From assembly GCA_023228995.1 (NCBI GenBank), contig JALOAD010000015.1, forward strand, positions 2,737 to 66,736: 64,000 nt of DNA. The letters are read 5' to 3'. Source of the DNA: Candidatus Muiribacterium halophilum (GTDB lineage Bacteria; Muiribacteriota; Muiribacteriia; Muiribacteriales; Muiribacteriaceae). The notes under the pieces were generated by a model that did not search any database, was not told where the DNA came from, and was given only the letters and a program-made list of their open reading frames with translations. The first letter of the stretch is position 1. Every line of letters starts with the position of its first letter. This document shows, piece after piece, positions 14,880 through 60,405 of this stretch. The position numbers were made by a program, and so were the translations under genes.

Positions 14880-14894
14880 TTTTTCCTCTAATTA

Positions 14895-16214: not shown

Positions 16215-16227
16215 AAATCACTCCCGT

Positions 16228-38440: not shown

Positions 38441-38503
38441 TTTACTGAACTCTCCCTATATAGTTTTGTGCAATAAAGAATCAATCTTTTATATAGTATT
38501 TTA

Positions 38504-39568
38504 TTACATAGAAGATTTAAGCATTCTCTTTAATTCGTCAGGATACATAGTAGCATTAAGTGCATTATCCATAGTTACCAACCCTTTATGATACAATGTG
38601 GCAAGACTCTGTTCAAAAGTCTGCATACCTTGATTCTGACTAGTCTGCATAACAGTATATATCTGATGCACCTTAGATTCTCTAATAAGATTCTGCACTG
38701 CTGAATTGTTTATAAGAACTTCACATGCAGGAATTCTACCTTTACCGCTTGCAAGCGGAAGAAGATTCTGAGCTACAACAGCCTGAATAACAAAAGATAA
38801 CTGAGTTCTTATCTGTTGTTGTTGATAAGAAGGAAACACATCAATAATTCTGTTTATAGTCTGAGCAGCATCTGTTGTATGCAAAGTAGCAAAAACAAGA
38901 TGTCCTGTTTCTGCAAGGGTCAATGCTGATTCAAATGTTTCAAGATCTCGCATTTCTCCAATAAGTATAACATCAGGATCCTGTCTTAGAACATGCTTAA
39001 GAGCACCTTTAAAACTTGTTGTATCCTGACCTAATTCTCTCTGATTTATAATTGATTTTTTATGATAATGTAAATATTCTATTGGATCTTCAATTGTAAG
39101 AATATGACATTTTCTTGTTCTGTTTATTATGTCTATTACAGCAGCAAGAGAAGTCGATTTTCCTGAACCTGTAGGTCCTGTTACAAGAACAAGTCCTTTA
39201 GCAAGTTTTGCGAATTCTTTAACTTTATCAGGAAGACTCAATTCTTCAATACTAGGTATTTTAGATGGAATAACCCTAAAAGCAGCTCCAATACATCCTC
39301 TTTGTTTATAAACATTTACCCTAAATCTACCAAACCCATGAACAGAATAAGAAAGATCAAGTTCTTTTTTTTCTTCAAATTCTTTTTGCTGATCAGCATT
39401 TAGCATATTATATATAAGACTTCTAGTATCCATTGGAGTAAGAATATCAAGATCAGTTGCTATAAGTTCGCCATCGACCCTAATAATAGGCGATGCTCCA
39501 ACTGTAAGATGTAGATCTGATGCTTCATTATCGATTACCAAATTTAACAGATCATTTAAAACAAACAT
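38504..39568 (-). CDS. pilT: Type IV pilus retraction ATPase
   Basis: SDLHL, GRFRVN, GPTGSGKSTSL, TIEDPIEY, LRQDPDVILIGEMRD, AETGHLVFATLHT. Confidence 0.95.
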   Translation of the reverse strand: MFVLNDLLNLVIDNEASDLHLTVGASPIIRVDGELIATDLDILTPMDTRSLIYNMLNADQQKEFEEKKELDLSYSVHGFGRFRVNVYKQRGCIGAAFRVIPSKIPSIEELSLPDKVKEFAKLAKGLVLVTGPTGSGKSTSLAAVIDIINRTRKCHILTIEDPIEYLHYHKKSIINQRELGQDTTSFKGALKHVLRQDPDVILIGEMRDLETFESALTLAETGHLVFATLHTTDAAQTINRIIDVFPSYQQQQIRTQLSFVIQAVVAQNLLPLASGKGRIPACEVLINNSAVQNLIRESKVHQIYTVMQTSQNQGMQTFEQSLATLYHKGLVTMDNALNATMYPDELKRMLKSSM

Positions 39569-39581
39569 TATTCCTCCTAAA

Positions 39582-41312
39582 TTATGCTACGGTAACTGAA
39601 GTTACTTGTTCGACTGTTGTTGTTCCTAAAAGAAGTTTTCTTAAACCTGATTCTCTAAGAGTGTACATTCCTTCAGCTCTTGCAACTTTTCTTACTTCGG
39701 TGACTGATTTTTTTTGAATTATCATTTCTTTTAAATTTTCGCTTATAGGCATAACTTCATAAACACCAGTTCTACCTTTATAACCTTCGTTATTACACAT
39801 TTCACAGCCTTTCCCTTTATAAAATACCAGATTGTTAAGATCTATATTTTTCATACCTAATTTTATTAGAAGTTCTGGAGTCAAACCAAGGCTTTTCACA
39901 AGTTCAGGTTTTGGTTTATATTCAATTTTACAATTATTACATATAGTTCTAACAAGTCTCTGTGCCTGAACTAGTATAACAGAAGTAGCAACCATATACG
40001 ATTCCACACCCATATCAATAAGTCTTCCAACAGTTGACGCAGCATCATTTGTATGTAGAGTGGAAAGCACTAGATGTCCTGTAAGAGAAGCTTTAATCGC
40101 AATCTCAGCAGTTTCATAATCTCGAATCTCTCCAACCATTATAATATCAGGATCTTGTCTCAAAAATGATCTTAAGGCTGCTGCAAAAGTAAGTCCAATC
40201 TCTGGTCTACACTGAACTTGATTTATACCATGAAGATTATACTCAACAGGGTCTTCAGCAGTCATTATATTAACATCTGGTGTATTTAGTCTATGAAGTC
40301 CTGAATAAAGTGTAGTTGATTTACCAGAACCGGTCGGACCTGTCACTAGAAGAATTCCATTAGGCTGTTCTAAAGCTCTATTGAATCTTTTAAGCGATTC
40401 AGGTTCAAAACCTGATTTTGTAAGGTCAACATTAAGATTTGACTGATCAAGTATTCTCATAACTATTTTTTCACCATATTGACATGGTAATGAAGAAACT
40501 CGAAGATCTATTGGTTTACCATTAACTTTTATTTTTATCTTTCCATCCTGCGGAAGTCTTTTTTCTGCAATATCAAGTTTACTCATAATCTTTACACGAG
40601 AAGTTATAGCAGCCTGAGCTTTTTTAGGTGGATTCATTCTATTATGGAGAACACCATCATATCTAAACCTAACTCTAAGATCTTTTTCATAAGGTTCAAT
40701 ATGAATATCAGAAATTCCGCCTTCAACAGCTTGAGTTATTAAAAGGTTAACAAGTTTGATTATGGGAGCATCATTTTCGCCAAGTTCTGCATCAAGATCA
40801 TCAAGATTATCAAGAGATTCTTTCTCTTTACCAATATCTGCAAGATCTTCAATAAGATTACTAACCTGACTATCTGCTCCAAACGCATTATCAAGTGCAG
40901 TACCTATATCTGAAGAAGTAGCAACAACAGGTTTTACAGACAAACCGGTCATAAGCTGTATATCATCAATTGCAAGTATATTGAGTGGATCTACCATTGC
41001 AACAGTAAGTTTATTTCCAACTTTATTAATTGGAATAAGCTGATATCTTCTTGCAATATGCTCAGGTACAGTCCTAGCAATTGCAGGGTCAATAAGGTAA
41101 GTTGCAAGATTGACATAAGGAATTTTCATCTGTTTTGCCAATGCTTCAACCATATCAGTTTCTGATACAAGATCCATTTCTACAAAAATCTTTCCTAGTC
41201 TTTTACCAGTCTTTTTTTGAATCTGCAAAGCTTTTTGAAGTTGTTCCTCGTCTATAAGCCCTTCCTCAAGAAGAGCATCTCCAATCCTGAGTCTTTTAAT
41301 TGGCATTACCAT
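39582..41312 (-). CDS. pilB: Type IV pilus assembly ATPase
   Basis: MshEN-like N-terminus RIGDALLEEGLI, SDIHIEP, EKRLPQDG, GPTGSGKSTTLY, LRQDPD, CNNC..CEMC zinc motif. Confidence 0.95.
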   Translation of the reverse strand: MVMPIKRLRIGDALLEEGLIDEEQLQKALQIQKKTGKRLGKIFVEMDLVSETDMVEALAKQMKIPYVNLATYLIDPAIARTVPEHIARRYQLIPINKVGNKLTVAMVDPLNILAIDDIQLMTGLSVKPVVATSSDIGTALDNAFGADSQVSNLIEDLADIGKEKESLDNLDDLDAELGENDAPIIKLVNLLITQAVEGGISDIHIEPYEKDLRVRFRYDGVLHNRMNPPKKAQAAITSRVKIMSKLDIAEKRLPQDGKIKIKVNGKPIDLRVSSLPCQYGEKIVMRILDQSNLNVDLTKSGFEPESLKRFNRALEQPNGILLVTGPTGSGKSTTLYSGLHRLNTPDVNIMTAEDPVEYNLHGINQVQCRPEIGLTFAAALRSFLRQDPDIIMVGEIRDYETAEIAIKASLTGHLVLSTLHTNDAASTVGRLIDMGVESYMVATSVILVQAQRLVRTICNNCKIEYKPKPELVKSLGLTPELLIKLGMKNIDLNNLVFYKGKGCEMCNNEGYKGRTGVYEVMPISENLKEMIIQKKSVTEVRKVARAEGMYTLRESGLRKLLLGTTTVEQVTSVTVA

Positions 41313-42078
41313 TTTTTATCACCTCGGTCAAATACTTGTCTATACAATAATAATCGTCAAAAACATCTATTCCGGTAAATATTTTAAAGTTTATCAAAGC
41401 TTGCTCAATCAATAATATTACACCATTATAAAAGGCTAAATTATTGATATTATAGTTAACATCAAAGATTTTATCACAATCAAAATTCGTTTTCAATTTA
41501 TTGTCAATAACATTTACCGGTGTCGAATTTACAAAAAAATAACCTCTATACCTTTTTATATCATTATATTCAATTAAATCATTTGAATATTTTTTTAAAA
41601 ACTCATCTTTATTTGCTTTATACTTGTTTCTTGTAATAAAAACAGGTTTTATATTAAAATTTTTGTATAAAGAGTAAGCTATGCTTTTTGCCGTTATACC
41701 GGTTCCTGCAATAATAAAGTTTTTGGAAAGTATTTTATTTCTTTTAATAAAATTCACAAATCCATCTCCGTCTGTGTTAAAAGAAAAAAATCTATTTTTA
41801 ATTTTTATTACTGTATTTGCACCACCAATAATCTTTACATCCTCTGAAGGTTCAGTATATTTAACTATTTCTTTTTTAAAAGGATATGTTACATTGAATC
41901 CTTGCAGATTTTTAATTTTTATCAATGCACTTATAACTTCATCAAATACATTTATAGAAAATGAAAAGCCTGAATAACAATTATTTAGGTTGTATTTTTT
42001 AAAAAGAAAATTATAGATTTCAGGCGATAATGAACGAGAAATATCTTCCCCAATTAAAAAATAAGAATCAATAAACAT
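41296..42078 (-). CDS. aroE: Shikimate dehydrogenase
   Basis: SLSP, GFNVTYPFK, ANT, NTDGDGF, AGTG, EQALINF. Confidence 0.8.
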   Translation of the reverse strand: MFIDSYFLIGEDISRSLSPEIYNFLFKKYNLNNCYSGFSFSINVFDEVISALIKIKNLQGFNVTYPFKKEIVKYTEPSEDVKIIGGANTVIKIKNRFFSFNTDGDGFVNFIKRNKILSKNFIIAGTGITAKSIAYSLYKNFNIKPVFITRNKYKANKDEFLKKYSNDLIEYNDIKRYRGYFFVNSTPVNVIDNKLKTNFDCDKIFDVNYNINNLAFYNGVILLIEQALINFKIFTGIDVFDDYYCIDKYLTEVIKNGNAN

Positions 42079-42442
42079 TCTTATCTAAAGAAATTTTTGC
42101 AGAATTAATTGCACTATCAAGTGTGTCATGAAGTTCAAAAACTCTGGTTAATTTAGATATTTCCAGAATGTTTCTAATTATCTTATTAACTTCAGCAAGT
42201 TTTATCTCACCATCAATTTTTCTTGCATTTTTAAGAAAACCCGCAAGAAGTCCTAAACCAGAACTATTGATATAAATAACATCTCTCATGTTAAGAATAA
42301 AATGTTTTTTTCCCTGCTCAATAAAGTTATTGAATTCTCTTTTAAAATTATCATTAGCAATTTCTGTTATTTCGCCTTTGAGATTAAAAATCACAATATT
42401 TTCAACAGGTTCTGAAAAATCAAACTCAAACCTATCAGTCAT
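42068..42442 (-). CDS. STAS-domain anti-sigma factor antagonist
   Basis: LKGEI, LNMRDVIYINSSGLGLL, ILEISKLTRVF. Confidence 0.88.
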   Translation of the reverse strand: MTDRFEFDFSEPVENIVIFNLKGEITEIANDNFKREFNNFIEQGKKHFILNMRDVIYINSSGLGLLAGFLKNARKIDGEIKLAEVNKIIRNILEISKLTRVFELHDTLDSAINSAKISLDKNVY

Positions 42443-44570: not shown

Positions 44571-44733
44571 GAGTTAAATAGCGAGATGGTGAAGTGGTGA
44601 AATAGTTAAAGCTTTAAATCCATTTCGCTAATCAAAATATTCAGTGAATATTTTGTTTTATGTTCATTGAACATTTTGACCTTTAACCCTTTAACCCTTT
44701 AACTATTTAACCCTTTAACTATTTAACTATTTT
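44571..44733. repeat. Hairpin cluster and octamer repeats between convergent genes (probable bidirectional terminator)
   Basis: TAGCGAGATGG/CCATTTCGCTA, CAAAATATTCA-G-TGAATATTTTG, ATGTTCA-T-TGAACAT, then (TTTAACCC/TTTAACTA)n. Confidence 0.7.
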
Positions 44734-47700
44734 TATTGCTTTTATCGCTTCACTTAAATCATTTAGAGTAAAAGGTTTATTTACAATTGAAGAAAAGCCA
44801 TATTTTCTATAATTTTCAGCAATATCGTTTTGTGAATAACCACTTGCTACAATAACTTTTATATTTTTATCAATATGCAATAATTCTTTCATAGTCTCAA
44901 CACCACCAAGACCACCTTTTATAGTAAGATCCATTACAGCAAAATCAAATCTTAAACCAGCTTTATATTTTGCAATAAGTTCCTCTCCTTTTTCACATTC
45001 TTCAACCTCATAACCAAGCTCTTCAAGCATATATTTTATAACTTCTCTTACATCCTGTTCATCATCCATTACAACAACTCTTCCCTTGCCTTTGACAAGA
45101 ATTTCATTTTCATAATTTTTTTCTTTTATAATCCCCTCAATTACAGCTGGAAGAAATATATCAAATCTTGTTCCTTGATTTTTTTCAGAAAAAACTTCAA
45201 TAAATCCTTCATGATTTTTTACAATTGCAAGAACTGATGCAAGACCTAATCCTGTACCTTCTTTTTTGGTTGTAAAATAAGGATCAAATATTCTTGAAAT
45301 ATCATTTTTTTCAATTCCATTTCCAGTATCTTTTACTGATATTTTAACAAAATTTCCCGATTTCCCACCTTCATTAAAAAGCGCCTGATTTGTAGCTCCA
45401 AGATATACATTTCCTCCATCTAACATAGCTTGACAAGAATTAATAATCACATTATTTATCACCTGTTTTATCTTTCCGATATCTGCTTCAATATTCCATA
45501 ATTTATCTTCTATATCAAGTACAAGCCTATTATTTGTACCTCTAATTGAAAACTCAGCTGTATCTTTTATTGCTTTTTTAAGATTTATAAGTTCTTTGTT
45601 AGGAGTTTCTCTCTTTGCAAAAGTAAGAAGCTGCATTGTAAGTTCCTTTGCATTCATACATGCATTTTCAGCATTTTTTAAATGTTGATATATTTTTTCA
45701 TTTTTATTGAAATTTTTTTCAACAATTGAAATATTTCCTAAAACACTTGTTAAAATATTGTTAAAATCATGAGCTATTCCTGCGGCAAAAAGTCCAATTG
45801 ATTCAAGTTTTTGAAGATTAATCATTTCTTCTTCTATCTTTTTTTCAACCCTTATATCTCTAAAAGCAATTACTGCACCATTTACTTTACCTAAATTGTT
45901 AAATGTAGGTGCGATATTCATATAAATTGGGATATTTTCTGGACCTATTGTAATATTTTTAATTATTTTGTTATTTTTTTCTGTAGTAACAACTTTTAAA
46001 ATAGGATTATACTCATTATTATTTAATTTTATATTGCATATACTTATGTTTTTCCCTATTGAAACATCACCTTTGGATTTTATAATATTTTGTGCAATTT
46101 TATTTATTAAGAGAATATTTCCTTTTTTATCAGTATTTATAACTCCCTCTTCTATTGAATTTATTGTAACAATTATTCTTTCTTGTTCTTCATAAAGTTC
46201 TCTTTCCATTCTTCGCTCTTCTGTAATATCAACTCCTATAAATATTATATTGTCATTATCAATAGGAGAAAGCATTATCAAAAGTTGTTTATCATAATTA
46301 TTATCATAAGGAGTGAATAATATTTCTCTTATAAATATTTTCCCAGATAATATTTTATCTTTTACATGCTGAATCTCATTTTTATCTAAATTTTTCCAGA
46401 AAGTAAAAAGATCAATATCAGAAAAATCATTTTGTGAAAGTCCTGAAACCCAAGAAAACTTTCTATTCATCTCAAGAAACCTGAATTTTTTATCAAGAAG
46501 ACCAATCATATTTGGAGAATTTTCAAAAAGAGTTCTGTATTTTTTCTCAGAACCGATAACTGATCTTATATATGAATATTCCTTTCTCAAAAAATCAAAT
46601 AAAATTAAAAGAATAACAAAAAGTATAATTATAAATATATAACTAAAATTTCTATAATTTGTAACAAGAGAATTATTAGCAAGAAAAATAACTTTCCAAT
46701 TAGCATATTTCAAATTTGCTTCTTCCATATAATAAGTGAAACCATTTAATTTAACATTTTTATGATTTATTTGTGAAAATAAACTTGTATTTTTTAAACC
46801 TTCAAACTGTCTTGAATCAACAATATTATTAAAATCATATTCATCTAACTCTTTAATAACTTTTAGAACATATTCTTTATTATTACTCATAAGTATTACA
46901 CCTAAATCATTTACAATAAAAATAGGATTTTCATCAGGAATTATACTTTCAACTATATCAAGATTTTTTTTAATAACAGCAACTCCCTTTATTTCACCAT
47001 CTTTCTTAAAAGGAAAACTTGTATAAAAACCTCGTTCATTTGTTGTAATTCCAACAGCAAAGTAGTATGTAATAATACCTTCCATAGCTGTTTTAAAATA
47101 ATTTCTAAAACTATAATTATAACCTAAAATTGATGTTGTAGAATCTCGATTTGAAGACACAACAGTATTCCCATTTTTATCCATAACATAAACTACAGAA
47201 GCTTTAAGAATATCAAAATACCTATCAACAATAATATTACTTTTTAAATAATCCTCTTGCTTTTTTTCATCAAGATAATCAAAAATAATATCTTCTTCCG
47301 CAAGAAGTCTAACTCCTTTCATATAAATCTCGAGATTATCATTTAATACTTTTGATATTTCACGACTTTTAAATTTTGCATCTTTAATAAGAATGTTTTC
47401 AGCAATATTCTCAGATATATTTATAATAAAAACAGATATAATAATCAATATTACAATGCTGGATAAAAAAGATATCCATATTATCTTTTTATTGAAAACA
47501 TTATCTTTTTTATTATAAATTTTTTGTAAAATATATAAAAAAACTCCTAAAGAAATAAATAATAAACTATATAACGATATAACTGATATATCTACAATTA
47601 ATCTTAATGTTGACGCTAAAGCAATTAACAAAAAAAATAAATATATATTTTTTTCAGGATTTTTTTTATTTATCTTTTTCATAAAAAACGGAATACTTGA

Positions 47701-48087
47701 ATTAACAATAGTGAATATTGACAATATAAAAACAAAATTGTTATTTAAAAAAACAGAGAAAACTTTTGAAAACAGATAAAGTAAAGAAAATAAAAGAAAA
47801 AATACAATAAAAATATTTCTTCTTAAATATGGTTTTAAATAATAAAGAGCTAAAAATATACTCAAACTTATAATTAAAAATATTTGAATTTCAATTACAA
47901 TTCCAACGATTTTAGAATTCATATTAAAAGCTTCTAATAACTTATATGAAGCAAAAATAAATACAATAAAAGAAGAAAATCTTATATGAGAATTTTTTTT
48001 AAGTTTTAATAAGTAAGAAATTATTAAAAATAATATCCCTATAGAAAAATTATAATATACTATATTTTCAGAAATAATATTATTCAT
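44719..48087 (-). CDS. Hybrid sensor histidine kinase (multi-TM, Cache, 2 PAS, HisKA, HATPase, REC)
   Basis: YSFRNYF Cache motif, GIAHDFNNIL, INSCQAM, DTGNGI, FDPYFTTK, GTGLGL, MDDE..MDL..KPF. Confidence 0.92.
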   Translation of the reverse strand: MNNIISENIVYYNFSIGILFLIISYLLKLKKNSHIRFSSFIVFIFASYKLLEAFNMNSKIVGIVIEIQIFLIISLSIFLALYYLKPYLRRNIFIVFFLLFSLLYLFSKVFSVFLNNNFVFILSIFTIVNSSIPFFMKKINKKNPEKNIYLFFLLIALASTLRLIVDISVISLYSLLFISLGVFLYILQKIYNKKDNVFNKKIIWISFLSSIVILIIISVFIINISENIAENILIKDAKFKSREISKVLNDNLEIYMKGVRLLAEEDIIFDYLDEKKQEDYLKSNIIVDRYFDILKASVVYVMDKNGNTVVSSNRDSTTSILGYNYSFRNYFKTAMEGIITYYFAVGITTNERGFYTSFPFKKDGEIKGVAVIKKNLDIVESIIPDENPIFIVNDLGVILMSNNKEYVLKVIKELDEYDFNNIVDSRQFEGLKNTSLFSQINHKNVKLNGFTYYMEEANLKYANWKVIFLANNSLVTNYRNFSYIFIIILFVILLILFDFLRKEYSYIRSVIGSEKKYRTLFENSPNMIGLLDKKFRFLEMNRKFSWVSGLSQNDFSDIDLFTFWKNLDKNEIQHVKDKILSGKIFIREILFTPYDNNYDKQLLIMLSPIDNDNIIFIGVDITEERRMERELYEEQERIIVTINSIEEGVINTDKKGNILLINKIAQNIIKSKGDVSIGKNISICNIKLNNNEYNPILKVVTTEKNNKIIKNITIGPENIPIYMNIAPTFNNLGKVNGAVIAFRDIRVEKKIEEEMINLQKLESIGLFAAGIAHDFNNILTSVLGNISIVEKNFNKNEKIYQHLKNAENACMNAKELTMQLLTFAKRETPNKELINLKKAIKDTAEFSIRGTNNRLVLDIEDKLWNIEADIGKIKQVINNVIINSCQAMLDGGNVYLGATNQALFNEGGKSGNFVKISVKDTGNGIEKNDISRIFDPYFTTKKEGTGLGLASVLAIVKNHEGFIEVFSEKNQGTRFDIFLPAVIEGIIKEKNYENEILVKGKGRVVVMDDEQDVREVIKYMLEELGYEVEECEKGEELIAKYKAGLRFDFAVMDLTIKGGLGGVETMKELLHIDKNIKVIVASGYSQNDIAENYRKYGFSSIVNKPFTLNDLSEAIKAIKIVK

Positions 48088-48114: not shown

Positions 48115-49263
48115 CTATTGCTTAAAGTTTTTTTTATAAATATAAAATTTATTGTCTGATATTTGTTCTTGAAATATTATTTTTTCATCATCAAATAACA
48201 GATTATTAAGACTTGCAGGTAAAATATTTCCATAACAAAAAACCGGTTTTTCTTTATCTTTTAAATCGTAAACAAATAAATAATCTCTACTATTATTAGA
48301 ACATATAAATCCAAAATAATTATTGTTAATAGCATAATCTTGTATTTTATATAAATTGTTAAATGAATTTAATAAATTAAAACTCAATCCATTATTTTCG
48401 CTCTTATATAAACTAAGCAATTTATTATTATCGATTACTATATATAAATTACCACCACTTTCAAATATATGTTTTTCTCCATCAGTTAAAGTATTTATAA
48501 CTGGTTTTTTTACAAATGTTCTACCATTATTATAGCTAAAAAAACTAAAACAAGAATTATCTTTTATAAATGAAAAAGATAAAATGTTTTTTACAGAACT
48601 TAAAGCTATGTTTTTAATATCATCAATTTTTTCAAATTCTATAAAATTAGAATATATATTATTCAAATCTTTGTCAGCAACACTTATATAAATACCTTTT
48701 CTTTCATCAATAAATGATTTTTTAGTAGCATCAACTTCATAAAGAGTATGATCTTGTTTTTGAACAATATTACTATCTTTATATTTTTCAATAATATGGT
48801 TTATTTTATTATTATATTCAAAATATATAGAAGGAGTCTTTTTTGACATTATAATATGCTTTTCATCTATTAAATAATTATCAATATCCCAAAAAGGATT
48901 TGTATAAATACCAAAATATTCATCAAATGAATCAGAATATTTTATAAAAGATTTTTCTGCTTTTAAATCTTTTTTAGAAATAATTTCACATGCATAAGGT
49001 TTTTTTAATAAATTTATACATTTAGGAATTTCAAGTTTTTTTATATTAAAATCTTTTGTAACAACATTTAATTTTATAATATTATACTTTTCATCAATAA
49101 TAAATAAATTTTCATTATTTAAAGCTATATTAAAAAACCCCATATTTGATTCATAAGAGTAAATTTTATGTATATCTGAGTATATATTAATATAATATGC
49201 TGAAAATATTGCTAGAATAAAAAAAATAAATAAAAGTACTAAAAATCGTTTATATTTTTTCAT
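48115..49263 (-). CDS. Hypothetical membrane-anchored protein with Asp-box (BNR)-like motifs
   Basis: N-terminal TM; SYNNGRTF and SENNGLSF resemble SxDxGxTW. Confidence 0.5.
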   Translation of the reverse strand: MKKYKRFLVLLFIFFILAIFSAYYINIYSDIHKIYSYESNMGFFNIALNNENLFIIDEKYNIIKLNVVTKDFNIKKLEIPKCINLLKKPYACEIISKKDLKAEKSFIKYSDSFDEYFGIYTNPFWDIDNYLIDEKHIIMSKKTPSIYFEYNNKINHIIEKYKDSNIVQKQDHTLYEVDATKKSFIDERKGIYISVADKDLNNIYSNFIEFEKIDDIKNIALSSVKNILSFSFIKDNSCFSFFSYNNGRTFVKKPVINTLTDGEKHIFESGGNLYIVIDNNKLLSLYKSENNGLSFNLLNSFNNLYKIQDYAINNNYFGFICSNNSRDYLFVYDLKDKEKPVFCYGNILPASLNNLLFDDEKIIFQEQISDNKFYIYKKNFKQ

Positions 49264-49840
49264 AATTAAGCTTCTCCTTTATATTTTTATAAAATAAATT
49301 ACTTTGTTTTTTTAAACAGTTCATTTTATTAGAGATTTTTCCTTTTAAAACAATACTATTTAGAAATTCAATATTAAATAATACATTATAACAACATGCA
49401 TTTAAAGCACATTTCAAAAAATCAACTCCAGACATTATATCACATTCAGTATTATTAATATAATTTTGTGTTATTTCTTCTGTTAAAGAAAATACAATTA
49501 AAATATTTTCTATAATTTCAAGAGGAATTTCACAACTTTCTAAAACAACTTTTTCTTTATACTCATTTGAAAGTTCTTCAAATTTAAGAAATTTTTCAAA
49601 AATATAGCTATCTTTATTCATAAGAATAAACAAATTACCTTTTATTAAATCAAGTTTTTCAATATAATTATAAAAAATATCTTTTACATTATCATTATTT
49701 TTTAAAATAATTACACAAGACATTCTTATTAGAGAAATACCTAAATTTGCAACATAACACGCTGAAGCTCCACCACCAGGTGGATTTTTAGAATTACCAA
49801 CATTAAAAGCAAAATCAAAAAGATTCATTTTTTCAAGCAT
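49250..49840 (-). CDS. Cyclodeaminase/cyclohydrolase (FTCD C-terminal) family protein
   Basis: PPGGGASAC..LG.SL..M, D...F, SCEIPLEI, CDIMSG..L..A. Confidence 0.75.
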   Translation of the reverse strand: MLEKMNLFDFAFNVGNSKNPPGGGASACYVANLGISLIRMSCVIILKNNDNVKDIFYNYIEKLDLIKGNLFILMNKDSYIFEKFLKFEELSNEYKEKVVLESCEIPLEIIENILIVFSLTEEITQNYINNTECDIMSGVDFLKCALNACCYNVLFNIEFLNSIVLKGKISNKMNCLKKQSNLFYKNIKEKLNYEKI

Positions 49841-49849
49841 ATAAAATCC

Positions 49850-50827
49850 TCAAATAAAAAATTCATTTATTCTTTTGATTTCTTCATGGATTTCATTGTC
49901 TTTAGGCTTTCGTGGAAAATTATACCAATCACCAGTAACTTTTTCATTATAAAAAGGTCTATTACAACCTTCGCAACCACTTGTTCTAAAAAACTCTCCA
50001 TCCCCAAGAATTCCTGGAATTTTTTTATAATTTACTTTTTTTACAAAATTATTTTCATCAAAAACAATATCATTAAATTCAATTTCTTTTTTCTTTAAAA
50101 GATAAAATATAGCCTGACATAATCTATAATATTTAATATCAGGGGATTTTTTTTCCTCTAAATATCCTTTCTTTTTAATAGGAGTATAAGCAAAAAGACT
50201 TACATTAATTTGTTTTAAAAGAAAAGAGTTTATTAACGAGAAAAGTTCATAACTAGTCTCACCTAAACCAATAATCAAATGAGCAGATATTCTATCTGGA
50301 AATTTTTCAACAGATTCATATAAAAACTCAATATTTTTTTTAAAATTTTTATGTTTTATAAAGAAAAATTCTTTTTCTGAAGCTACATCTATTGCAATAC
50401 CAATTCTATTAACACCACATTCAATAAACTTATACATAAGTTCTGGATAATTCATAAGATCTATAGAAACATTTATATTTATATTAAATTTAATATTATC
50501 TCTTAAATATTTAATAATATTTAATGTCATAATTGAGGTTTTCTCAGATTTTGTAACTTGAATGCATATATTTTTAAATTTATAACCTTTTTTATTAAAA
50601 GCTTGAACAAAAGTATAAATATCGAATTCAGGCCACATTACTCTTGAAAGCCTTGTTTCGCCTTCAGATTGAGAACAAAACTCACAATTATTATTACATT
50701 TATCACCAAACATTAAATAAGCAGTAGTTGGATCAACAAGATTTTTAACCCTATTCAAACCAAGAACAGCTCCAGTTCCCTGAGATATTTTTATTTTATA
50801 AAACACAACATTCATAACTATACTCAA
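49850..50827 (-). CDS. lipS2: Radical SAM protein, LipS2-type lipoyl synthase subunit
   Basis: CNNNCEFCSQ (CxxxCxxC), LSRVMWP, HLIIGLGET, FAYTP, C-terminal TSGCEGCNRPFYNE. Confidence 0.7.
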   Translation of the reverse strand: MSIVMNVVFYKIKISQGTGAVLGLNRVKNLVDPTTAYLMFGDKCNNNCEFCSQSEGETRLSRVMWPEFDIYTFVQAFNKKGYKFKNICIQVTKSEKTSIMTLNIIKYLRDNIKFNININVSIDLMNYPELMYKFIECGVNRIGIAIDVASEKEFFFIKHKNFKKNIEFLYESVEKFPDRISAHLIIGLGETSYELFSLINSFLLKQINVSLFAYTPIKKKGYLEEKKSPDIKYYRLCQAIFYLLKKKEIEFNDIVFDENNFVKKVNYKKIPGILGDGEFFRTSGCEGCNRPFYNEKVTGDWYNFPRKPKDNEIHEEIKRINEFFI

Positions 50828-51593
50828 TTAAAAATTTATTTTCTAAAGCATATTTTTCAGCTTCTTTTGAAGGCATTACAATTTTATCAACACCAAGCTT
50901 TAAAGCTTCAATATCAAGCTTTCTTCTATAAATCCCACCAGGTCTCATACAACCAAGAGAAACATTTTTAATTTTACTTTTTCCATACTTTATAATATCA
51001 AGAACATCTTCAATATTAGGCGATTTAAATAATGCAAAATCAGTATTTTTATTTACTATAAGAACTAAAAAAACAATTTCATCAAATCTTTCAGATAAAT
51101 AATCAATAGCTTGTTTTTCACCTAAAATTTCACCTTCATTCACTCCAATCATAACATGAGGAACAACTCTTATTTTATTTTTTAAAAAATTATCAATAGA
51201 ATGAGTAAAATCCTTTTGAGTAAAAAAATCACCATATATTCTTTTGATTGTTTCTTTATGAATTAAAAAATCAAAAGATACGCAATCTGCAATTTCTTTA
51301 AGCTTAATAAAATCAGAATTGTTTTTTATTATACCTGTATGAATATTTAATTTGATATTTTTATTTTTTAAATCTAAAAGTTCATTAAAATGTTCTATAA
51401 AAGGAACACAACCTTTATCGTTCATACCACCGCTTACAAGTATAGAAGAATATTTATCATTTTTTATATCACTAATTTTTTTCATATTTATAAGATAATG
51501 TTTATTACAATAAGGACAATTAAGAAAACAATTTTTATTAGTAAGAGATATTGAAATAGTTTGTGAAGGTTTTACAAATTTAATATTATTCAC
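50796..51593 (-). CDS. lipS1: Radical SAM protein, LipS1-type lipoyl synthase subunit
   Basis: CFLNCPYC, LVSGG, NIHTG, VPHVMIG, LGCMRP and terminal ECC; GTG at 51593 overlapping the BMC stop is the likely start (ORF track 51680). Confidence 0.7.
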   Translation of the reverse strand: MNNIKFVKPSQTISISLTNKNCFLNCPYCNKHYLINMKKISDIKNDKYSSILVSGGMNDKGCVPFIEHFNELLDLKNKNIKLNIHTGIIKNNSDFIKLKEIADCVSFDFLIHKETIKRIYGDFFTQKDFTHSIDNFLKNKIRVVPHVMIGVNEGEILGEKQAIDYLSERFDEIVFLVLIVNKNTDFALFKSPNIEDVLDIIKYGKSKIKNVSLGCMRPGGIYRRKLDIEALKLGVDKIVMPSKEAEKYALENKFLIEYSYECCVL

Positions 51594-52401
51594 GTCTGTC
51601 TGGACATTCAAGATCATCACAGAGTGCACATATGTAATTACAATCTTTTCTTTTTTCTTTTTCTTTTTCCTTCTTAACACCTACAACTTCTTGAGATTTT
51701 TTCATTTCATTTTTTGTTTGATTTTTTATTTCAACAATTACTGCTTTAGGTTTTTCTTTTATTTCTTCTTCTTCTTTTTCTTCTTTTTTTTCTTCTTCTT
51801 CTTGTTTTTCAATAAAATCACTATAAACATTTTTATATTCTTCATTTATATCAGATAAATTCTCATCTTTTATAATATTCGGAATTTCTATATTTTCTTC
51901 AATTATTTTTATATCTTCATCTTTTACAAATTCCAGATTATCAATTGTTTCTTCTCTTGCCGCTTCTTCTCTTGCCGCTTCTTCTTTCACAGTTTCTTCT
52001 CTCACAGTTTCTTCTCTCACAGCTTCTTCTTTCACAGCTTCTTCTTTCACAGCTTCTTCTTTCACAGCTTCTTCTCTCACAGCTTCTTCTCTCACAGCTT
52101 TTTTTCTCACCGGAGCATATTGACTTCCCATGTATTTTTCACCATTTATAATACCAATTAGCTGAGAATCAGGTTTAGCAATAACATGACTTGAAATAAG
52201 AGTATTATATTTTGTTGCTACTTCAATACCACATTGTATAGATGATTGAACCGCACCAACATCACCTTCAATCTTTATAGTTACACAACCAAAATTTGCT
52301 TCATAATTTAATAATTTAACATCTGCTGCTTTAAGGCAAGCATCTAAAGTTTCTATAGAACTTGAAAAACCCTTTATCTCAATCATTCCCAAAGCTTTCA
52401 T
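51586..52401 (-). CDS. BMC-H shell protein with repetitive acidic linker and Cys-rich C-terminus (PduK-like)
   Basis: ALGMIEIKG..DACLKAADV..IEGDVGAVQSS..SHVIAKP; tail CNYICALCDDLECP. Confidence 0.85.
   Translation of the reverse strand: MKALGMIEIKGFSSSIETLDACLKAADVKLLNYEANFGCVTIKIEGDVGAVQSSIQCGIEVATKYNTLISSHVIAKPDSQLIGIINGEKYMGSQYAPVRKKAVREEAVREEAVKEEAVKEEAVKEEAVREETVREETVKEEAAREEAAREETIDNLEFVKDEDIKIIEENIEIPNIIKDENLSDINEEYKNVYSDFIEKQEEEEKKEEKEEEEIKEKPKAVIVEIKNQTKNEMKKSQEVVGVKKEKEKEKRKDCNYICALCDDLECPDRRE
51946..52110 (-). repeat. 15-bp coding tandem repeat (about 11 units, EE[A/T][V/A][K/R])
   Basis: cacagcttcttct(c/t)t units read directly. Confidence 0.95.
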
Positions 52402-52410
52402 GAAAAAAAC

Positions 52411-52686
52411 CTACCCTGTTATATTAAATTCGTTGTATTTACCCGTACTATTATAATACTGAACACTTACTTTTTCAACATTTGAATGTACCGACCCCTT
52501 TTTTACCGACTCAATAAACATTTTAACCTGCACATCATTTCCTTCACAGCAAATTGTAACAGATCTATCAGGATTATTTCTTACAAAACCAGTCAAGCTT
52601 AGATTTTTTGCTATATTATAAACAAAATGTCTAAATCCAACTCCTTGAACTTTTCCTCTAACAGTAATTTGAGCAGCTTTTGGCAT
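52411..52686 (-). CDS. acyP: Acylphosphatase
   Basis: VRGKVQGVGFR, LTGFVRNNPDRSV, GS. Confidence 0.95.
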   Translation of the reverse strand: MPKAAQITVRGKVQGVGFRHFVYNIAKNLSLTGFVRNNPDRSVTICCEGNDVQVKMFIESVKKGSVHSNVEKVSVQYYNSTGKYNEFNITG

Positions 52687-52718
52687 ATTATTTACCTCTC
52701 AGTAAATCATAAAATTAA

Positions 52719-52747
52719 ATACTACAACACATCGAAGAAATAGACAA
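52719..52747 (-). promoter_or_regulatory. Sigma70-like promoter TTGTCT-17-TAGTAT for the acyP-BMC-lipS operon
   Basis: Minus-strand TTGTCT 52742-52747 and TAGTAT 52719-52724. Confidence 0.5.
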
Positions 52748-52755
52748 GAATTTAT

Positions 52756-53271
52756 AAAAAAATCTACTCGATAACTTGAGTGAACGTTGCGAAGCATATA
52801 ATATACGGATGTATTATAAGTGAACGAAGGTAACAGAGGCTGTTGAAAAACTAAAAAGAAGAAACATTGATGCAGAATAGGGTCTGTGCCGATCTCAAAT
52901 TTTAGCTTACATAGGTCGGCCTGACCATGCTGTTTGATTTTAAAGTTAAGTTTAAAAAAAAGAAAACCTGTTTTTTTCAACAGCCTCTAAAATACCGAAT
53001 GATTATTTTTTTGCGTTATTGTAATGATAAAAAAATCAAAAACAGATCCCGGCTCAGAATCATGCCGGGATGACATTTTCTCAGAATAGTACCGGAATGA
53101 CATTTTCTCAGAATAGTACCGGAATGACAGGTTTTTAATTTCCAATGTCGAATTAAAAGAAAAAACTTTGAAGCTGTGACAGATAAAGCGTGACATGTCA
53201 CTTTGTGACATTAGTAACAAAAACAAAGTCATGCCGGGATGACAGTTTCTCAGAATCATGCATGGATGACA
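52756..53271. repeat. Mosaic hairpin repeat, copy B (M1-MITE-M2-27mers-M3-M4-27mer)
   Basis: Modules nearly identical to 20460-20851; 27-bp units CTCAGAAT(CATG/AGTA)CCGGRATGACATTTT at 53053, 53080, 53107 and 53249. Confidence 0.85.
52835..52988. mobile_element. 154-bp MITE-like element with perfect 16-bp terminal inverted repeats
   Basis: AGAGGCTGTTGAAAAA (52835-52850) / TTTTTCAACAGCCTCT (52973-52988); absent from copy A; no ORF and no clear target duplication. Confidence 0.7.
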
Positions 53272-53313
53272 TTATATTAATTTTTTGTTTATTTAATCAT
53301 AGAACTCTATTAT

Positions 53314-53341
53314 TAATCTTTTCAATTTTATTTGCCGATAA
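53314..53341 (+). promoter_or_regulatory. Putative sigma28 (FliA/SigD) promoter of flgBC
   Basis: Perfect -10 GCCGATAA at 53334-53341; imperfect -35 TAAT 16 nt upstream. Confidence 0.55.
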
Positions 53342-53375
53342 TAGAATTATAATAATATTTAATGAGAGGATGCCA

Positions 53376-53795
53376 ATGATTTCAAGACTAGAGTCAGCAA
53401 AAACTTTAAGACTTCTTGAACAAGGACTTGATTGTGCTTCTTTTAGACATAGAATAATCTCAAACAATATCGCAAATGTTGATACTCCAGGGTTTAAAAT
53501 ATCTGGTGTAAAGTTTGAAGATAAATTAAGAAAAGTTTTAAACGATGATGGTATAAAAGGAGTCAGAACTCACGCAAATCACATGCCTGTTGGACTTCCA
53601 CAATATAATGAAGTTATTCCACAAAAAATCATGTTCACAGATACTAATTATAGAAACGATAAAAACAATGTTGATATTGATGTTGAAATGGCAAAAATGA
53701 GTAAAAACTCTATTTATTATGAAGCATGTATAACAAGAACAAATAGTTTTTTCACTAATCTTGATGAAGCTATAACTAAAGGCGGAGGTAGATAA
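53376..53795 (+). CDS. flgB: Flagellar basal-body rod protein FlgB
   Basis: RHRIISNNIANVDTPGFK, RNDKNNVDIDVEM; ATG 53376 after GAGAGGA (ORF-track extension is translated repeat). Confidence 0.95.
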   Translation: MISRLESAKTLRLLEQGLDCASFRHRIISNNIANVDTPGFKISGVKFEDKLRKVLNDDGIKGVRTHANHMPVGLPQYNEVIPQKIMFTDTNYRNDKNNVDIDVEMAKMSKNSIYYEACITRTNSFFTNLDEAITKGGGR

Positions 53796-53797
53796 AA

Positions 53798-54241
53798 ATG
53801 AGAATATTTGGAGCAATTGATGCTGCATCTTCAGGTCTTACAGCTCAGAGATTAAGAATGGACTGTATTTCAAACAATATAGCTAATGTTAATACAACTA
53901 GAACTAAAGAAGGTGGACCTTATAGAAGACAAGTTCCTGTGTTTTTACCAAGACAAGAGCAAAAATTTAATATACCATTTCCACCAAGAAAAGGTATTGA
54001 TTCAATAGGAGAAGGAGTAAGAATTGGAGGAATTCAATCTGATAATTCTGAATTAAGAAAAGTTTTTGAACCTGGTCATCCTGATGCTGACAAAGACGGT
54101 TATGTACAGTATCCAAATGTTCAGATAGTCAAAGAAATGGTTGACATGATATCTGCAAATAGATCTTATGAAGCAAATGTATCTACAATAACTACAGCGC
54201 AAAACATGGCACAAAAAGCAATTGGTATTGGTAGTCGTTAA
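53798..54241 (+). CDS. flgC: Flagellar basal-body rod protein FlgC
   Basis: SGLTAQRLRMDCISNNIAN, GPYRR, PGHPDADKDGYVQYPNV, EMVDMISANRSYEAN. Confidence 0.97.
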   Translation: MRIFGAIDAASSGLTAQRLRMDCISNNIANVNTTRTKEGGPYRRQVPVFLPRQEQKFNIPFPPRKGIDSIGEGVRIGGIQSDNSELRKVFEPGHPDADKDGYVQYPNVQIVKEMVDMISANRSYEANVSTITTAQNMAQKAIGIGSR

Positions 54242-54870
54242 TGACAGCTAATATTAATTGGGTAACTGCATTTGTAACGATTTTTACAATAATAGATCCT
54301 TTTGGTCTAATTCCAATATTTCTTGGAGTAGCTGGAAAACTTGAAAAAAAACAAAGGATTAAAACAATTTTTTTATCATGTACAATAGCATTGATTGTTT
54401 CTTCGTTTTTTTTATTTTTAGGAAAACCTTTATTAAAAGTATTAGGACTATCTTTTGAAAGTTTTTATATAGCAGGAGGAATATTACTTTTTCTTGTAGC
54501 ATTAGATATGCTTTTTGCAAGGCCAAGAAGAACAAGAAACTCTCCTGAAGAACAGGATGAAATAACTGATAATTATCTTGACATTTCAGTGTTTCCTCTT
54601 GCAATACCAATGCTTGCAGGACCAGGGACAATTGCTACAATAATAATGTTCGCTTCTTCAGCAAAAAACATATTGGATTACGCAATAATTTTTGGATGTT
54701 TCGCAGTTTCACTATTAATATGCATGTTTTCAATGTTGTTTTCTGAATTTATTTTAAAATTACTAAAAAACACTGGACTAAATGTTATAGACAGACTTAT
54801 GGGAATGATACTTTCAGCTATGGCTGTACAATTTGTTTTAAATGCATTAAAAAATCTTTCGATTATTTAA
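54241..54870 (+). CDS. MarC family membrane protein
   Basis: IIDPFG..P.F, FYIAGGILLF, VFPLAIPMLAGPG, RLMGMIL.AMAVQF. Confidence 0.92.
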   Translation: MTANINWVTAFVTIFTIIDPFGLIPIFLGVAGKLEKKQRIKTIFLSCTIALIVSSFFLFLGKPLLKVLGLSFESFYIAGGILLFLVALDMLFARPRRTRNSPEEQDEITDNYLDISVFPLAIPMLAGPGTIATIIMFASSAKNILDYAIIFGCFAVSLLICMFSMLFSEFILKLLKNTGLNVIDRLMGMILSAMAVQFVLNALKNLSII

Positions 54871-57746: not shown

Positions 57747-57775
57747 TAGACAAATTTAACTATATGTTATACAAT
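57747..57775 (+). promoter_or_regulatory. Sigma70-like promoter TAGACA-17-TACAAT of the STAS gene
   Basis: TAGACA 57747-57752, TACAAT 57770-57775. Confidence 0.5.
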
Positions 57776-57817
57776 ATAATATGTTCTATAATAAAGTATA
57801 AATTTACTGAGGTAAAT

Positions 57818-58126
57818 ATGAAAAGTATAAATTATAAAAAAACCAATGATCATATAATATCATTTGAAGGTTTTATTGACTCAATAGAAGATGCTGCAAC
57901 TGTATCTGAAATTTTTGATAAAATATCAAAAGATAAACCAGAAAACATAATAATAAATCTTGAAAAAGCAGAATATATAAACAGTTCTATTCTCGGTGTT
58001 TTTATGAAATATTATAGATTAATGCCATATTCAAAAATTTCAATAAAATGTTGCAATCCTTATATAAGAGATTTGTTAAGAATAACAGCACTTGATAAAT
58101 TTTTTATACTAGATCCATCTGAATAA
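57818..58126 (+). CDS. STAS-domain anti-sigma factor antagonist
   Basis: IINLEKAEYINSSILG, LLRITALDKFF; ATG 57818 after GAGG. Confidence 0.8.
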   Translation: MKSINYKKTNDHIISFEGFIDSIEDAATVSEIFDKISKDKPENIIINLEKAEYINSSILGVFMKYYRLMPYSKISIKCCNPYIRDLLRITALDKFFILDPSE

Positions 58127-58725: not shown

Positions 58726-60405
58726 TCATTCCCCTTGTTGAATCTTTTTGTGTTTCTTAATAAATTCAATCGCATTATCTATATTTCTAAATATCTTATC
58801 TTCGCCTATTTTTAATATAAGTTTTGATTTTTTAAATGCAATCATTGGTTGTGCATTCACACCAGATAATAGAATAATAATACCTTTTTTTTCACAATTT
58901 TCAATAAAATCTTCCAAAGCTTTAAGACCTGTAGCATCAATTGCAGGAACATGTCTCATTCTAACAATTAAATACTCAGGAAATTCTGACATTTGATACA
59001 AAGCTGTTTTAAATTTTTCAGCAGCTCCAAAAAAGAAAGGACCATTTATCTCAAAAACAAGTACATTTTCAGGAATCTGCCTATTAACTATAGAAAAAGC
59101 ATCTTTTGCTATATCTTCCATATCATCTATATCTTTACCAATAAAATCAGCATTTGATACTTCAGACATTCTCTTCATAAACAAAAGTCCAGCCATAAAA
59201 ACACCTGCCTGAATAGCAACAGTAAGATCAATCAAAACTGTAAGAAGAAAAGTTGTAAGCAATACAAAAACGTCACTCTTAGGCGATTTCAATATTTTTA
59301 AAAACAACCTCCACTCACTCATATGATATGCAACCACTATAAGAATTGCTGATAAAAGACACATAGGTATCAAAGCAGCCATTTTTCCAAAGAAAAGAAG
59401 AATCAATAACAATGTAAAAGCATGTACAATACCTGAAATTGGAGAAAAAGCACCATTTTTAATATTAGTAGCTGTTCTTGCAATTGCTCCAGTTGCAGGA
59501 ATACCCATAAACATAGGACAAATAATATTAGCTATTCCTTGTGCAACAAGCTCCATATTAGAACGATGTTTTCTACCAGTCATACCATCTGCTACTACTG
59601 CTGAAAGTAAAGATTCAATTCCACCAAGAAGTGCAATCGTTATTGCAGCTGGAAAAACAAGCTTTATTTTATCAAATGACATATCAGGTAAAACAAATGC
59701 CGGAAAAGCCGAACTAACTTCACCAAATCTTGAACCAATTGTTTCAACAGGTATTTTAAAAATTTTAACCAACAATGTAACAAATACAAGTGTAAATATT
59801 GTTGAAGGTATTTTTTTAGTTATTTTAGGAAAATATACAATAAGAAAAAGTGATAATATTCCTAATAAAGTTGAATACAAATCTATATTATTAAAATTTT
59901 CAATTAAAAACTTTATTTTTTGATGAAATTCTGCTGGGAAAGTACCTTTTACAATTCCTAAAAAATCTTTCAACTGACTAGAAAAAATTATCAATGCAAT
60001 ACCAGAAGTAAAACCAACAGTAACCGGATATGGTATAAATTTAATAATACTACCCATTCCAGAAAAACCCATAATTAAAAGTAAAATACCAGCAATTACA
60101 GTCGCTGTAGCCAGTCCTTCATAGCCAAAATCAGACACAACTTTAAAAATAACAACAATAAATGCACCTGTTGGACCACCTATTTGAAACCTTGAACCGC
60201 TAAATATTGAAATAAGAAATCCAGCTATTATAGCAGTATATAATCCTTGTTCAGGTTTAACACCAGAAGCTATTGCAAATGCAATTGCCAAAGGAAGTGC
60301 AACTATACCTACAATAAAACCAGCAGATAAATCTTTAAAAAAATGTTTTGAAGTATAACCTTCTTTTAACGAACTGATAAGTTTTGGCACAAATTCATTC
60401 TTCAT
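58726..60405 (-). CDS. SulP/SLC26 anion permease with STAS domain
   Basis: DLSAGFIVGIVALPLAIAFA, GGPTGAF, IESLLSAV, GAIARTATN, FEINGPFFFGAA, IDATG. Confidence 0.95.
   Translation of the reverse strand: MKNEFVPKLISSLKEGYTSKHFFKDLSAGFIVGIVALPLAIAFAIASGVKPEQGLYTAIIAGFLISIFSGSRFQIGGPTGAFIVVIFKVVSDFGYEGLATATVIAGILLLIMGFSGMGSIIKFIPYPVTVGFTSGIALIIFSSQLKDFLGIVKGTFPAEFHQKIKFLIENFNNIDLYSTLLGILSLFLIVYFPKITKKIPSTIFTLVFVTLLVKIFKIPVETIGSRFGEVSSAFPAFVLPDMSFDKIKLVFPAAITIALLGGIESLLSAVVADGMTGRKHRSNMELVAQGIANIICPMFMGIPATGAIARTATNIKNGAFSPISGIVHAFTLLLILLFFGKMAALIPMCLLSAILIVVAYHMSEWRLFLKILKSPKSDVFVLLTTFLLTVLIDLTVAIQAGVFMAGLLFMKRMSEVSNADFIGKDIDDMEDIAKDAFSIVNRQIPENVLVFEINGPFFFGAAEKFKTALYQMSEFPEYLIVRMRHVPAIDATGLKALEDFIENCEKKGIIILLSGVNAQPMIAFKKSKLILKIGEDKIFRNIDNAIEFIKKHKKIQQGE

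Follow-up and report, generated by a model that had tools for sequence, protein, structure and literature searches.

In a 64,000-nucleotide (nt) stretch of contig JALOAD010000015.1 from the candidate phylum Muiribacteriota (hereafter, the window), a gene encoding a bacterial microcompartment (BMC) shell-type protein of the BMC-H class lies directly in front of lipS1 and lipS2, which encode two radical S-adenosylmethionine (SAM) proteins, and the same order is found in diverged lineages of this phylum. The BMC protein is classed from its sequence as a divergent PduK-type BMC-H, and its near-invariant tetra-cysteine tail most likely ligates an iron-sulfur (Fe-S) cluster. The reading preferred here, tentatively and at somewhat less than even confidence, is that LipS1 and LipS2 have gained a dedicated partner derived from a PduK-type shell protein, which would serve them as a hub for handing over Fe-S clusters or electrons and perhaps as a scaffold. 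A first-pass annotation of the window had suggested, as one of two options, that the shell protein scaffolds Fe-S delivery to these enzymes; it missed the tail, which is the best argument for that idea.

The cluster consists of seven minus-strand genes arranged head to tail from position 52686 to position 44719 (acyP, the BMC-H gene, lipS1, lipS2, an FTCD_C-family gene, a gene for a 382-amino-acid (aa) protein and a hybrid histidine kinase gene), in a window with a G+C content of about 25%. Along the cluster, acyP and the BMC gene are 9 nt apart, the BMC gene overlaps lipS1 by 32 nt and lipS1 overlaps lipS2 by 20 nt; 9 nt then separate lipS2 from the FTCD_C gene, which overlaps the gene for the 382-aa protein by 14 nt, and another 27 nt lie before the kinase gene. 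A scan found no terminator-like sites on the minus strand within the cluster. Gene content of the window was established with Pfam on all open reading frames (ORFs) of at least 120 aa, with NCBIfam equivalog models and their curated cut-offs and with six-frame tblastn; all genes named in the first-pass annotation are present on the minus strand and had been correctly read. The features are listed below.

52719..52747, minus strand: promoter-like element of the first-pass annotation, TTGTCT-17-TAGTAT, with 8 of 12 matches
52411..52686, minus strand: acyP, stand-alone acylphosphatase, 91 aa, first gene of the cluster (PF00708, 91 bits)
51586..52401, minus strand: BMC-H gene, 271 aa (PF00936, 75.9 bits, residues 3-77)
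52174..52401, minus strand: BMC-H domain, residues 1-76 (PF00936, PDB matches and AlphaFold2 (AF2))
52108..52173, minus strand: post-domain segment, residues 77-98, PDSQLIGIINGEKYMGSQYAPV (invariant residues among orthologs)
51646..52107, minus strand: E/K-rich linker, residues 99-252 (composition and tandem repeat)
51586..51645, minus strand: tetra-cysteine tail DCNYICALCDDLECPDRRE and stop codon (near-invariance among orthologs)
50796..51617, minus strand: lipS1, 273 aa, ATG at 51617, starting 32 nt inside the BMC gene (NF053742)
49850..50815, minus strand: lipS2, 321 aa, ATG at 50815, with a 20-nt overlap with lipS1 (NF053743)
49250..49840, minus strand: FTCD_C-family protein, 196 aa (PF04961, 76.9 bits)
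48115..49263, minus strand: lineage-specific 382-aa protein with an N-terminal membrane helix and one Asp-box-like motif (no Pfam or NCBIfam match)
44719..48087, minus strand: hybrid sensor histidine kinase, 27 nt downstream (PAS, HisKA, HATPase_c and Response_reg domains)

Both radical SAM proteins scored above the cut-offs of the LipS1 and LipS2 equivalog models over the full length of these models (LipS1: NF053742, 249.2 bits against a cut-off of 230, model positions 1-268 of 268; LipS2: NF053743, 289.5 bits against 270, model positions 1-292 of 292), and the motifs from which this assignment had been proposed, LGCMRP...ECC in LipS1 and TSGCEGCNRP in LipS2, are both present. In Thermococcus kodakarensis, mutagenesis has mapped the ligands of the radical SAM and auxiliary clusters of LipS1 and LipS2 (PMC9585515), and all of these ligands are kept in the window. 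Residues C30/C34/C37, H154, C223 (in LGCMRP) and C270/C271 (in ECC) of LipS1 correspond to C27/31/34, H159, C230 and C276/277 of the T. kodakarensis protein, and residues C40/C44/C47, C84, H179 and C281/C284 (in SGCEGCNRP) of LipS2 correspond to C39/43/46, C85, H178 and C276/279. The LipS1 ligand positions were invariant in 19 homologs, and the LipS2 motif GCxxC[ND]RP recurred in all of the 70-odd loci examined. LipS1 is 35-45% identical to its counterparts in Firmicutes, Chloroflexota, Thermotogota and archaea, so its divergence is not unusual. The pair is thus predicted, with high confidence, to be a bona fide two-component lipoyl synthase, with lipoyl synthesis as its function. In this system, LipS2 and then LipS1 work on one protein-bound substrate (PMC9585515), and the inserted sulfur comes from the clusters of the two enzymes, such that an outside supply of Fe-S is required (PMC9585515; PMC12442378).

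The protein encoded in front of lipS1 carries a single, canonical and non-permuted BMC domain (PF00936, 75.9 bits against a gathering score of 24.5), as had been noticed before. This domain is colinear with the PDB sequences of HO BMC-H, CcmK, PduA and EutM (E values from 1e-16 to 1e-10), and its AF2 model has the order beta-alpha-beta-beta-alpha-beta, with a predicted local distance difference test score (pLDDT) above 90 over residues 1-70. The domain retains the edge lysine of D-A-x-x-K (D-A-C-L-K in the window), and the equivalent of PduA Arg79 is Lys or Gln; PduK itself was scored as non-hexameric in one screen (PMC12058022). In the post-domain segment, G87, Y90, G92, Y95, P97 and V98 are invariant among orthologs, and PduK-like proteins carry a similar stretch, (K/G)-I-I-x-(S/G)-x-x-(T/Y)-(V/M)-G. 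The linker that follows contains 46 E and 26 K in about 155 residues, was modeled by AF2 with low confidence and is unalignable between orthologs. A 15-nt tandem repeat (10.8 copies at 51949-52110, inside the BMC gene) encodes (A/T)V(K/R)EE units in this region. The hypervariable linker disrupts assemblies and gene calls, as the repeat has two units fewer in a 99.7% identical sister contig, is replaced by 100 N in another assembly and shows a frameshift in yet another. The E-A-V-K-E-E units of the linker were also considered as a mimic of lipoyl-lysine, a candidate that was rejected since the units are not conserved in orthologs.

The C-terminal tail has the cysteine spacing CX3CX2CX4CP, and 14 of its 19 positions are invariant in five lineages. 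A search of 185,579 species genomes found the tail motif restricted to Muiribacteriota, and in a HMMER search of 1.84e9 representatives the tailed BMC family amounted to four full-length clusters and one fragment, after which scores dropped from 290 to 170 bits. Among the next 145 HMMER matches, 21 share the three-part build and end in CN[LI]CxDPxCPRRKGx5CIHY, and these 21 PduK-like representatives have the architecture and a C-x2-C-x4-C-P-x-R core in common with the window protein. In an alignment of the two motifs (CNY----C-DDLE-CP-DRR in the window versus CNYC-GDPA-CP-RRK), the window tail has a 4-residue insertion (I-C-A-L) that supplies its fourth Cys, whereas the fourth Cys of PduK lies further downstream. 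The full PduK motif, CN[LI]CxDPxCPRRKGx5C, was not found, as the window tail lacks the RKG...C-I-H-Y half. PduK is defined by a tetra-cysteine C-terminal extension that is regarded as a probable Fe-S site (PMC6325248; PMC12058022), and Fe-S binding by the Salmonella PduK tail has been described as "partly demonstrated" (PMC12058022).

The relatives surveyed are metagenome assemblies of one phylum, Muiribacteriota; those nearest to the window are metagenome-assembled genomes that bear the label Candidatus Muiribacteriota, Muiribacteriaceae or Muiribacterium halophilum. The linkage proposed in the first-pass annotation was found in at least six diverged lineages of this phylum. The BMC gene is followed by lipS1 and then lipS2 in the window and the near-identical contigs L009 and L010, in the L011/L100/L102/L106 lineage (61% identity to the window for the BMC domain and 50% for LipS1; the following pairs of values are given in the same order), in L012/L013 (58% and 36%; these contigs begin inside the BMC gene and the acyP flank is not assembled), in L020 from Ca. 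Muiribacterium halophilum (69% and 45%) and in L104 (59% and 42%). In L105 (83% and 64%), the order acyP-BMC-lipS1 is found on a 1,964-bp contig that ends inside lipS1, before any lipS2. Identities to the window thus range across lineages from 58 to 83% for the BMC domain and from 36 to 64% for LipS1, and at every locus assembled across both gene ends, the BMC gene either overlaps lipS1 or directly adjoins it. The acyP gene lies directly upstream of the BMC gene wherever this flank exists (L009, L010, L011, L020, L100-L102, L104, L105 and L106).

LipS1 loci in GTDB species genomes were searched with an 8-sequence LipS1 alignment. Among the best 80 loci, a BMC gene or acyP within 7 kb of LipS1 was found in Muiribacterium only (1 of 80) and was absent in the other 79. 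Of 92 flanking ORFs sampled at about 49 of the remaining LipS1 loci, 32 were gcvPB genes on the upstream side and 30 were LplA/B ligase genes on the downstream side, in agreement with published genome-neighbourhood analyses (PMC10332631; PMC9585515). Across loci L021-L099, gcvPB and a lipoate ligase gene flank lipS1-lipS2 in the majority of genomes from Firmicutes and Chloroflexota, and three Peptostreptococcaceae-type loci have a RACo-like (corrinoid reductive activase) gene upstream of lipS1-lipS2 instead. The more distant BMC homologs belong to eut/pdu-like loci of the usual kind, which contain BMC-P, aldehyde dehydrogenase, PTAC or EutABC. When the BMC protein or LipS1 alone served as the query of a locus search, the outcome was low-complexity matches only, or nothing.

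The hub reading is preferred because it brings together a multivalent protein, a probable Fe-S site on a tether, the overlap with lipS1, the phylum-wide gene order and the loss of the usual gcv/lplA neighbourhood. In the mechanism envisaged, LipS2 would thiolate C8, and LipS1 then C6, of the octanoyl-lysine on a lipoyl carrier encoded elsewhere, with each enzyme using up the sulfur of its own auxiliary [4Fe-4S] cluster. LipS1 and LipS2 also require a low-potential electron donor. In their partner, a BMC domain that forms hexamers would be joined through a long, flexible tether rich in E and K to an Fe-S-ligating CX3CX2CX4CP tail, and the protein would act outside of a closed microcompartment as a multivalent hub. 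The tethered Fe-S tails could re-load the sacrificial auxiliary clusters or pass electrons to the radical SAM clusters, and the hub may also keep LipS1 and LipS2 together. The more specific proposition that the BMC protein has been exapted without any microcompartment, as a hexameric hub with six tethered Fe-S tails that re-arm or reduce the LipS1/LipS2 clusters, is put forward with more doubt.

Several observations weigh against a hub. The tie between the BMC protein and LipS1/LipS2 is gene order only, in one uncultivated phylum, and since all relatives come from the metagenomes of this phylum, their conservation reflects vertical inheritance in one clade and not independent recurrence. Every other PduK-like protein that could be placed is encoded in a true BMC locus, so the window protein may have a shell role as well. 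That the tail binds metal is deduced from a motif that is only "partly demonstrated" for PduK itself, and a 4-Cys knuckle could hold zinc instead. Finally, the acylphosphatase is as tightly linked to the BMC gene as lipS1 and has no place in the model. The earlier suggestion of a scaffold for Fe-S delivery is strengthened by the near-invariant tetra-cysteine tail, and its other element, an interaction with LipS1/LipS2, continues to be deduced from gene order.

The alternative that survives best, although it is considered unlikely, is that of a satellite shell gene encoding a minor shell component of a metabolosome with its main locus elsewhere, in which case the adjacency to lipS1 would reflect shared regulation or accident. 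It is common for shell genes to lie in satellite loci, apart from the main locus (PMC8217296), and according to the literature PduK is located in PDU and, rarely, GRM loci (PMC12058022; PMC6325248). All distant BMC homologs that could be placed lie in ordinary eut/pdu-like loci, and the canonical BMC-H domain retains its edge lysine, as would be expected of a shell component. On the other hand, the BMC gene has remained next to lipS1 or in overlap with it (by about 30 nt) despite deep divergence, and the tailed family was found solely in front of lipS1 in both of the large searches (1.84e9 representatives and 185,579 species genomes). The available text and 18 supplements of the 2021 BMC catalog (PMC8217296) hold no Muirbacteria entry, which is weak negative evidence against a metabolosome in this phylum. 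The statement of the first-pass annotation that no further shell, lipoyl-carrier or ligase genes lie in the window also holds. Six-frame tblastn of the 64 kb found no other BMC domain, EutN or GcvH (the GcvH query was approximate, making this a weaker check), and Pfam on ORFs of at least 120 aa found no BMC-P (PF03319), second shell gene, lipoyl-domain gene or ligase gene. With PF03319 not found, the window is not a main BMC locus in the sense of Sutter et al. 2021, and no pdu or grm genes were found at the locus with Pfam or NCBIfam. Likewise, no BMC-P or other shell gene was found in the 10-20 kb flanks of six relatives.

An improbable variant of the hub is a metal-independent or zinc-stabilised scaffold, in which the hexamer and its tethers would join LipS1 and LipS2 to pass on the 8-mercapto-octanoyl intermediate and the tail would be a zinc knuckle or a docking peptide. 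The sequential action of LipS2 and LipS1 on one protein-bound substrate (PMC9585515) fits such a scaffold, as does a multivalent BMC protein with a long tether, and four close cysteines can bind Zn. However, the terminal C-P and the likeness to the PduK motif favour Fe-S, and hundreds of other LipS1/LipS2 pairs work without a scaffold of this type.

It was also proposed that lipoylation takes place inside a microcompartment, with LipS1/LipS2, the FTCD_C protein and a lipoylated glycine-cleavage-type system enclosed in an O2-shielding shell as an encapsulated lipoylation or one-carbon pathway. This is regarded as very improbable. The BMC-H gene is co-oriented with genes for oxygen-sensitive radical SAM enzymes and a folate-enzyme domain, as such a pathway would predict, but the proposal is unsupported, as nothing speaks in its favour beyond one shell-type gene. 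No BMC-P, second shell paralog or lipoylatable substrate protein is encoded nearby in the window, one BMC-H alone cannot close an icosahedral shell (established knowledge; see also PMC8217296), and acyP, LipS1 and LipS2 carry no encapsulation-type extensions specific to Muiribacteriota. The amphipathic C-terminal helix of LipS2 was considered as an encapsulation peptide and rejected, since this helix is a general feature present in the LipS2 of about 70 unrelated genomes. The folate cyclodeaminase domain, which had been counted as part of the system, is present in three lineages (the window, L012 and L020) and missing from two (L011/L102/L106 and L104), and FTCD_C is therefore not a core component but a dispensable accessory. 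Its family assignment is clear (PF04961, 76.9 bits against a gathering score of 24.5; PDB 1o5h, E value 5.9e-9), but the FchA equivalog NF045657 scored only 26.4 bits against a cut-off of 275, and an activity can therefore not be assigned to this protein.

Scarcely credible is the last alternative, a ribosomally synthesized and post-translationally modified peptide (RiPP)-like system in which the Cys-rich C-terminus is the substrate of both radical SAM enzymes and not a cofactor site: a variable N-terminal region and an invariant Cys-rich C-terminal peptide beside radical SAM genes are the usual RiPP layout, but both enzymes score above the LipS equivalog cut-offs and keep every ligand of the sulfur-donor clusters, neither has an extra SPASM or RRE domain in Pfam or NCBIfam, the pair is no more diverged than other bacterial pairs (35-45% identity), and the PduK motif, to which the tail is homologous, is found in the absence of enzymes of this kind.

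Among the companion genes, acyP encodes a protein that aligns to profile positions 2-85 of 85 and contains the catalytic Arg motif VxGxVQGVGFR as well as the Asn of GFVRN; the organism-specific NCBIfam equivalogs were below cut-off. The acylphosphatase is a constant companion of the BMC gene that is explained by none of the readings proposed here. The gene for the 382-aa protein always follows lipS2 or the FTCD_C gene, and its orthologs are 21-28% identical in an alignment. This product had been called an Asp-box protein, and it does contain one conserved S-x-[ND]-x-G-[RK]-[TS]-F motif (S-x-N-x-G-R-T-F in the window); the name finds no significant Pfam match behind it, as the best E values among orthologs were 0.067 (BNR_2) and 0.11 (BNR_6). 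For the window protein itself, a homolog search matched only the query, a profile search found no PDB relative, Pfam (including a permissive search) and NCBIfam gave no match, and the single-sequence AF2 model had a pLDDT of 39. The kinase gene is syntenic in all relatives and is possibly co-transcribed with the cluster.

Upstream of the cluster, the promoter-like element TTGTCT-17-TAGTAT had been proposed to precede the abutting and overlapping genes. The gene order was borne out; the promoter was not, as its 8 of 12 matches are below the scan threshold of 9, and the scan detected 53 sites in the window against 42.8 +/- 6.5 expected in shuffles of this AT-rich DNA. The proposed promoter is indistinguishable from chance. 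No riboswitch or leader was found upstream of acyP in Rfam. The element adjoins a dispersed repeat element: the intergenic regions 52690-53420 (upstream of acyP) and 20460-20851 share three segments of 83-99 nt that are 95-98% identical and in the same orientation, and both carry a 27-nt direct repeat, CAGAATMRTRCCGGRATGACA, present in 7 copies with none expected by chance. A contig 99.995% identical to the window stops matching it at 20766, inside the element, and the dispersed repeat therefore coincides with a strain-level breakpoint. The genes flgB-flgC-marC (53190-54870 in the window, 69-1551 in L020) are oriented divergently from the acyP cluster both in the window and in L011/L106 and co-directional with it in Ca. 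Muiribacterium halophilum, which points to an inversion of one block between genera with the adjacency kept.

Elsewhere in the window, many partner-switching components were found at 10100-12301, 25794-26993, 42068-42442, 57764-58126 and 58726-60405, comprising two SpoIIE-type phosphatases with GAF domains (one of them fused to a HATPase_c_2 anti-sigma-like kinase), two single-domain STAS proteins and one SulP-STAS transporter. Three amidohydrolase-family genes, including one for adenine deaminase, occur in a run at 13164-17607 and, with a pyrimidine-nucleoside phosphorylase gene at 4735-6039, probably represent a cluster for nucleobase salvage or catabolism. A MoxR-DUF58-BatA (Bat/aerotolerance-like) operon adjoins genes for type II secretion / type IV pilus ATPase and platform proteins (33505-37084 and 37238-41312).

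If the exaptation into a hexameric hub is real, a BMC-domain protein would for the first time be assigned a task in cofactor biosynthesis, and this would hint at a role of the PduK tail in propanediol microcompartments, namely to pass Fe-S clusters or electrons on to cluster-dependent enzymes. The known uses of the BMC fold would then extend beyond closed organelles, which is relevant to the engineering of shell proteins as scaffolds. Renewal of the auxiliary clusters in vivo, in LipS1/LipS2 and in lipoyl synthases generally, is known for few organisms, and a dedicated partner encoded in the same operon would offer a clean study system; as the PduK-type tail is tied here to just two well-understood Fe-S enzymes, its role is directly testable in vitro. 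Should the gene be a satellite shell gene instead, the result would be an ordinary one, yet it would flag an unrecorded BMC in a candidate phylum.

By comparison with known systems, LipS1/LipS2 represent a known family and the BMC protein a divergent member of the PduK type, and it is their link that goes unmentioned in the accessible parts of the LipS surveys (PMC10332631; PMC9585515) and the 2021 BMC catalog (PMC8217296). The earlier remark that BMC satellite loci are not known to include lipS genes is in line with this, and for Muirbacteria or Muiribacterium only taxonomy papers were found in the literature. The LipS proteins belong with those of T. kodakarensis (TK2109/TK2248) and of the bacterial sLpl(AB)-LipS1/S2 pathway (Hyphomicrobium, Thioalkalivibrio) by their CX3CX2C motifs and by auxiliary ligands at nearly the same residue numbers, and their genes are adjacent and overlapping, as in most bacteria. 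Unlike the usual LipS loci, the window has no GcvH/gcvP or LplA/B ligase (PMC9585515), LipT or LipM (PMC10332631) neighbours, and has acyP and the BMC-H gene upstream and the FTCD_C gene and a gene for an unknown membrane protein downstream. BMC satellite loci differ in that they accompany a main locus with BMC-P, which was not seen in the 64 kb or in the flanks of the relatives.

PduT and GrpU are shell proteins with an Fe-S cluster that serves the traffic of electrons or clusters (PMC6325248), although their cluster is held at the pore of the tile, whereas the Cys motif of the window protein is on a tether. A further likeness is to PduK, with which the window protein shares a canonical BMC-H domain, a similar post-domain stretch, a long acidic low-complexity linker and a short C-terminal Cys motif with C-P-x-R. 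It departs from PduK in that its motif reads CNYICALCDDLECPDRRE-stop instead of CN[LI]CxDPxCPRRKGx5CIHY, with the fourth Cys provided by the 4-residue insertion and the distal half missing, and in that its gene lies in front of lipS1 and not in a PDU or other BMC locus. Among the suppliers of clusters to lipoyl synthases, NfuA reportedly regenerates the cluster of E. coli LipA, as McCarthy and Booker are said to have found in 2017. For T. kodakarensis, SmsB2C2 (SmsBC) supplies Fe-S clusters to LipS1/LipS2 in vitro (PMC12442378). The window protein has no sequence relationship to NfuA or SmsB2C2 and lacks an Nfu, A-type or SUF domain, but the job proposed for it would be the same as theirs, namely to provide a fresh [4Fe-4S] cluster to an enzyme that destroys its own cluster at each turnover.

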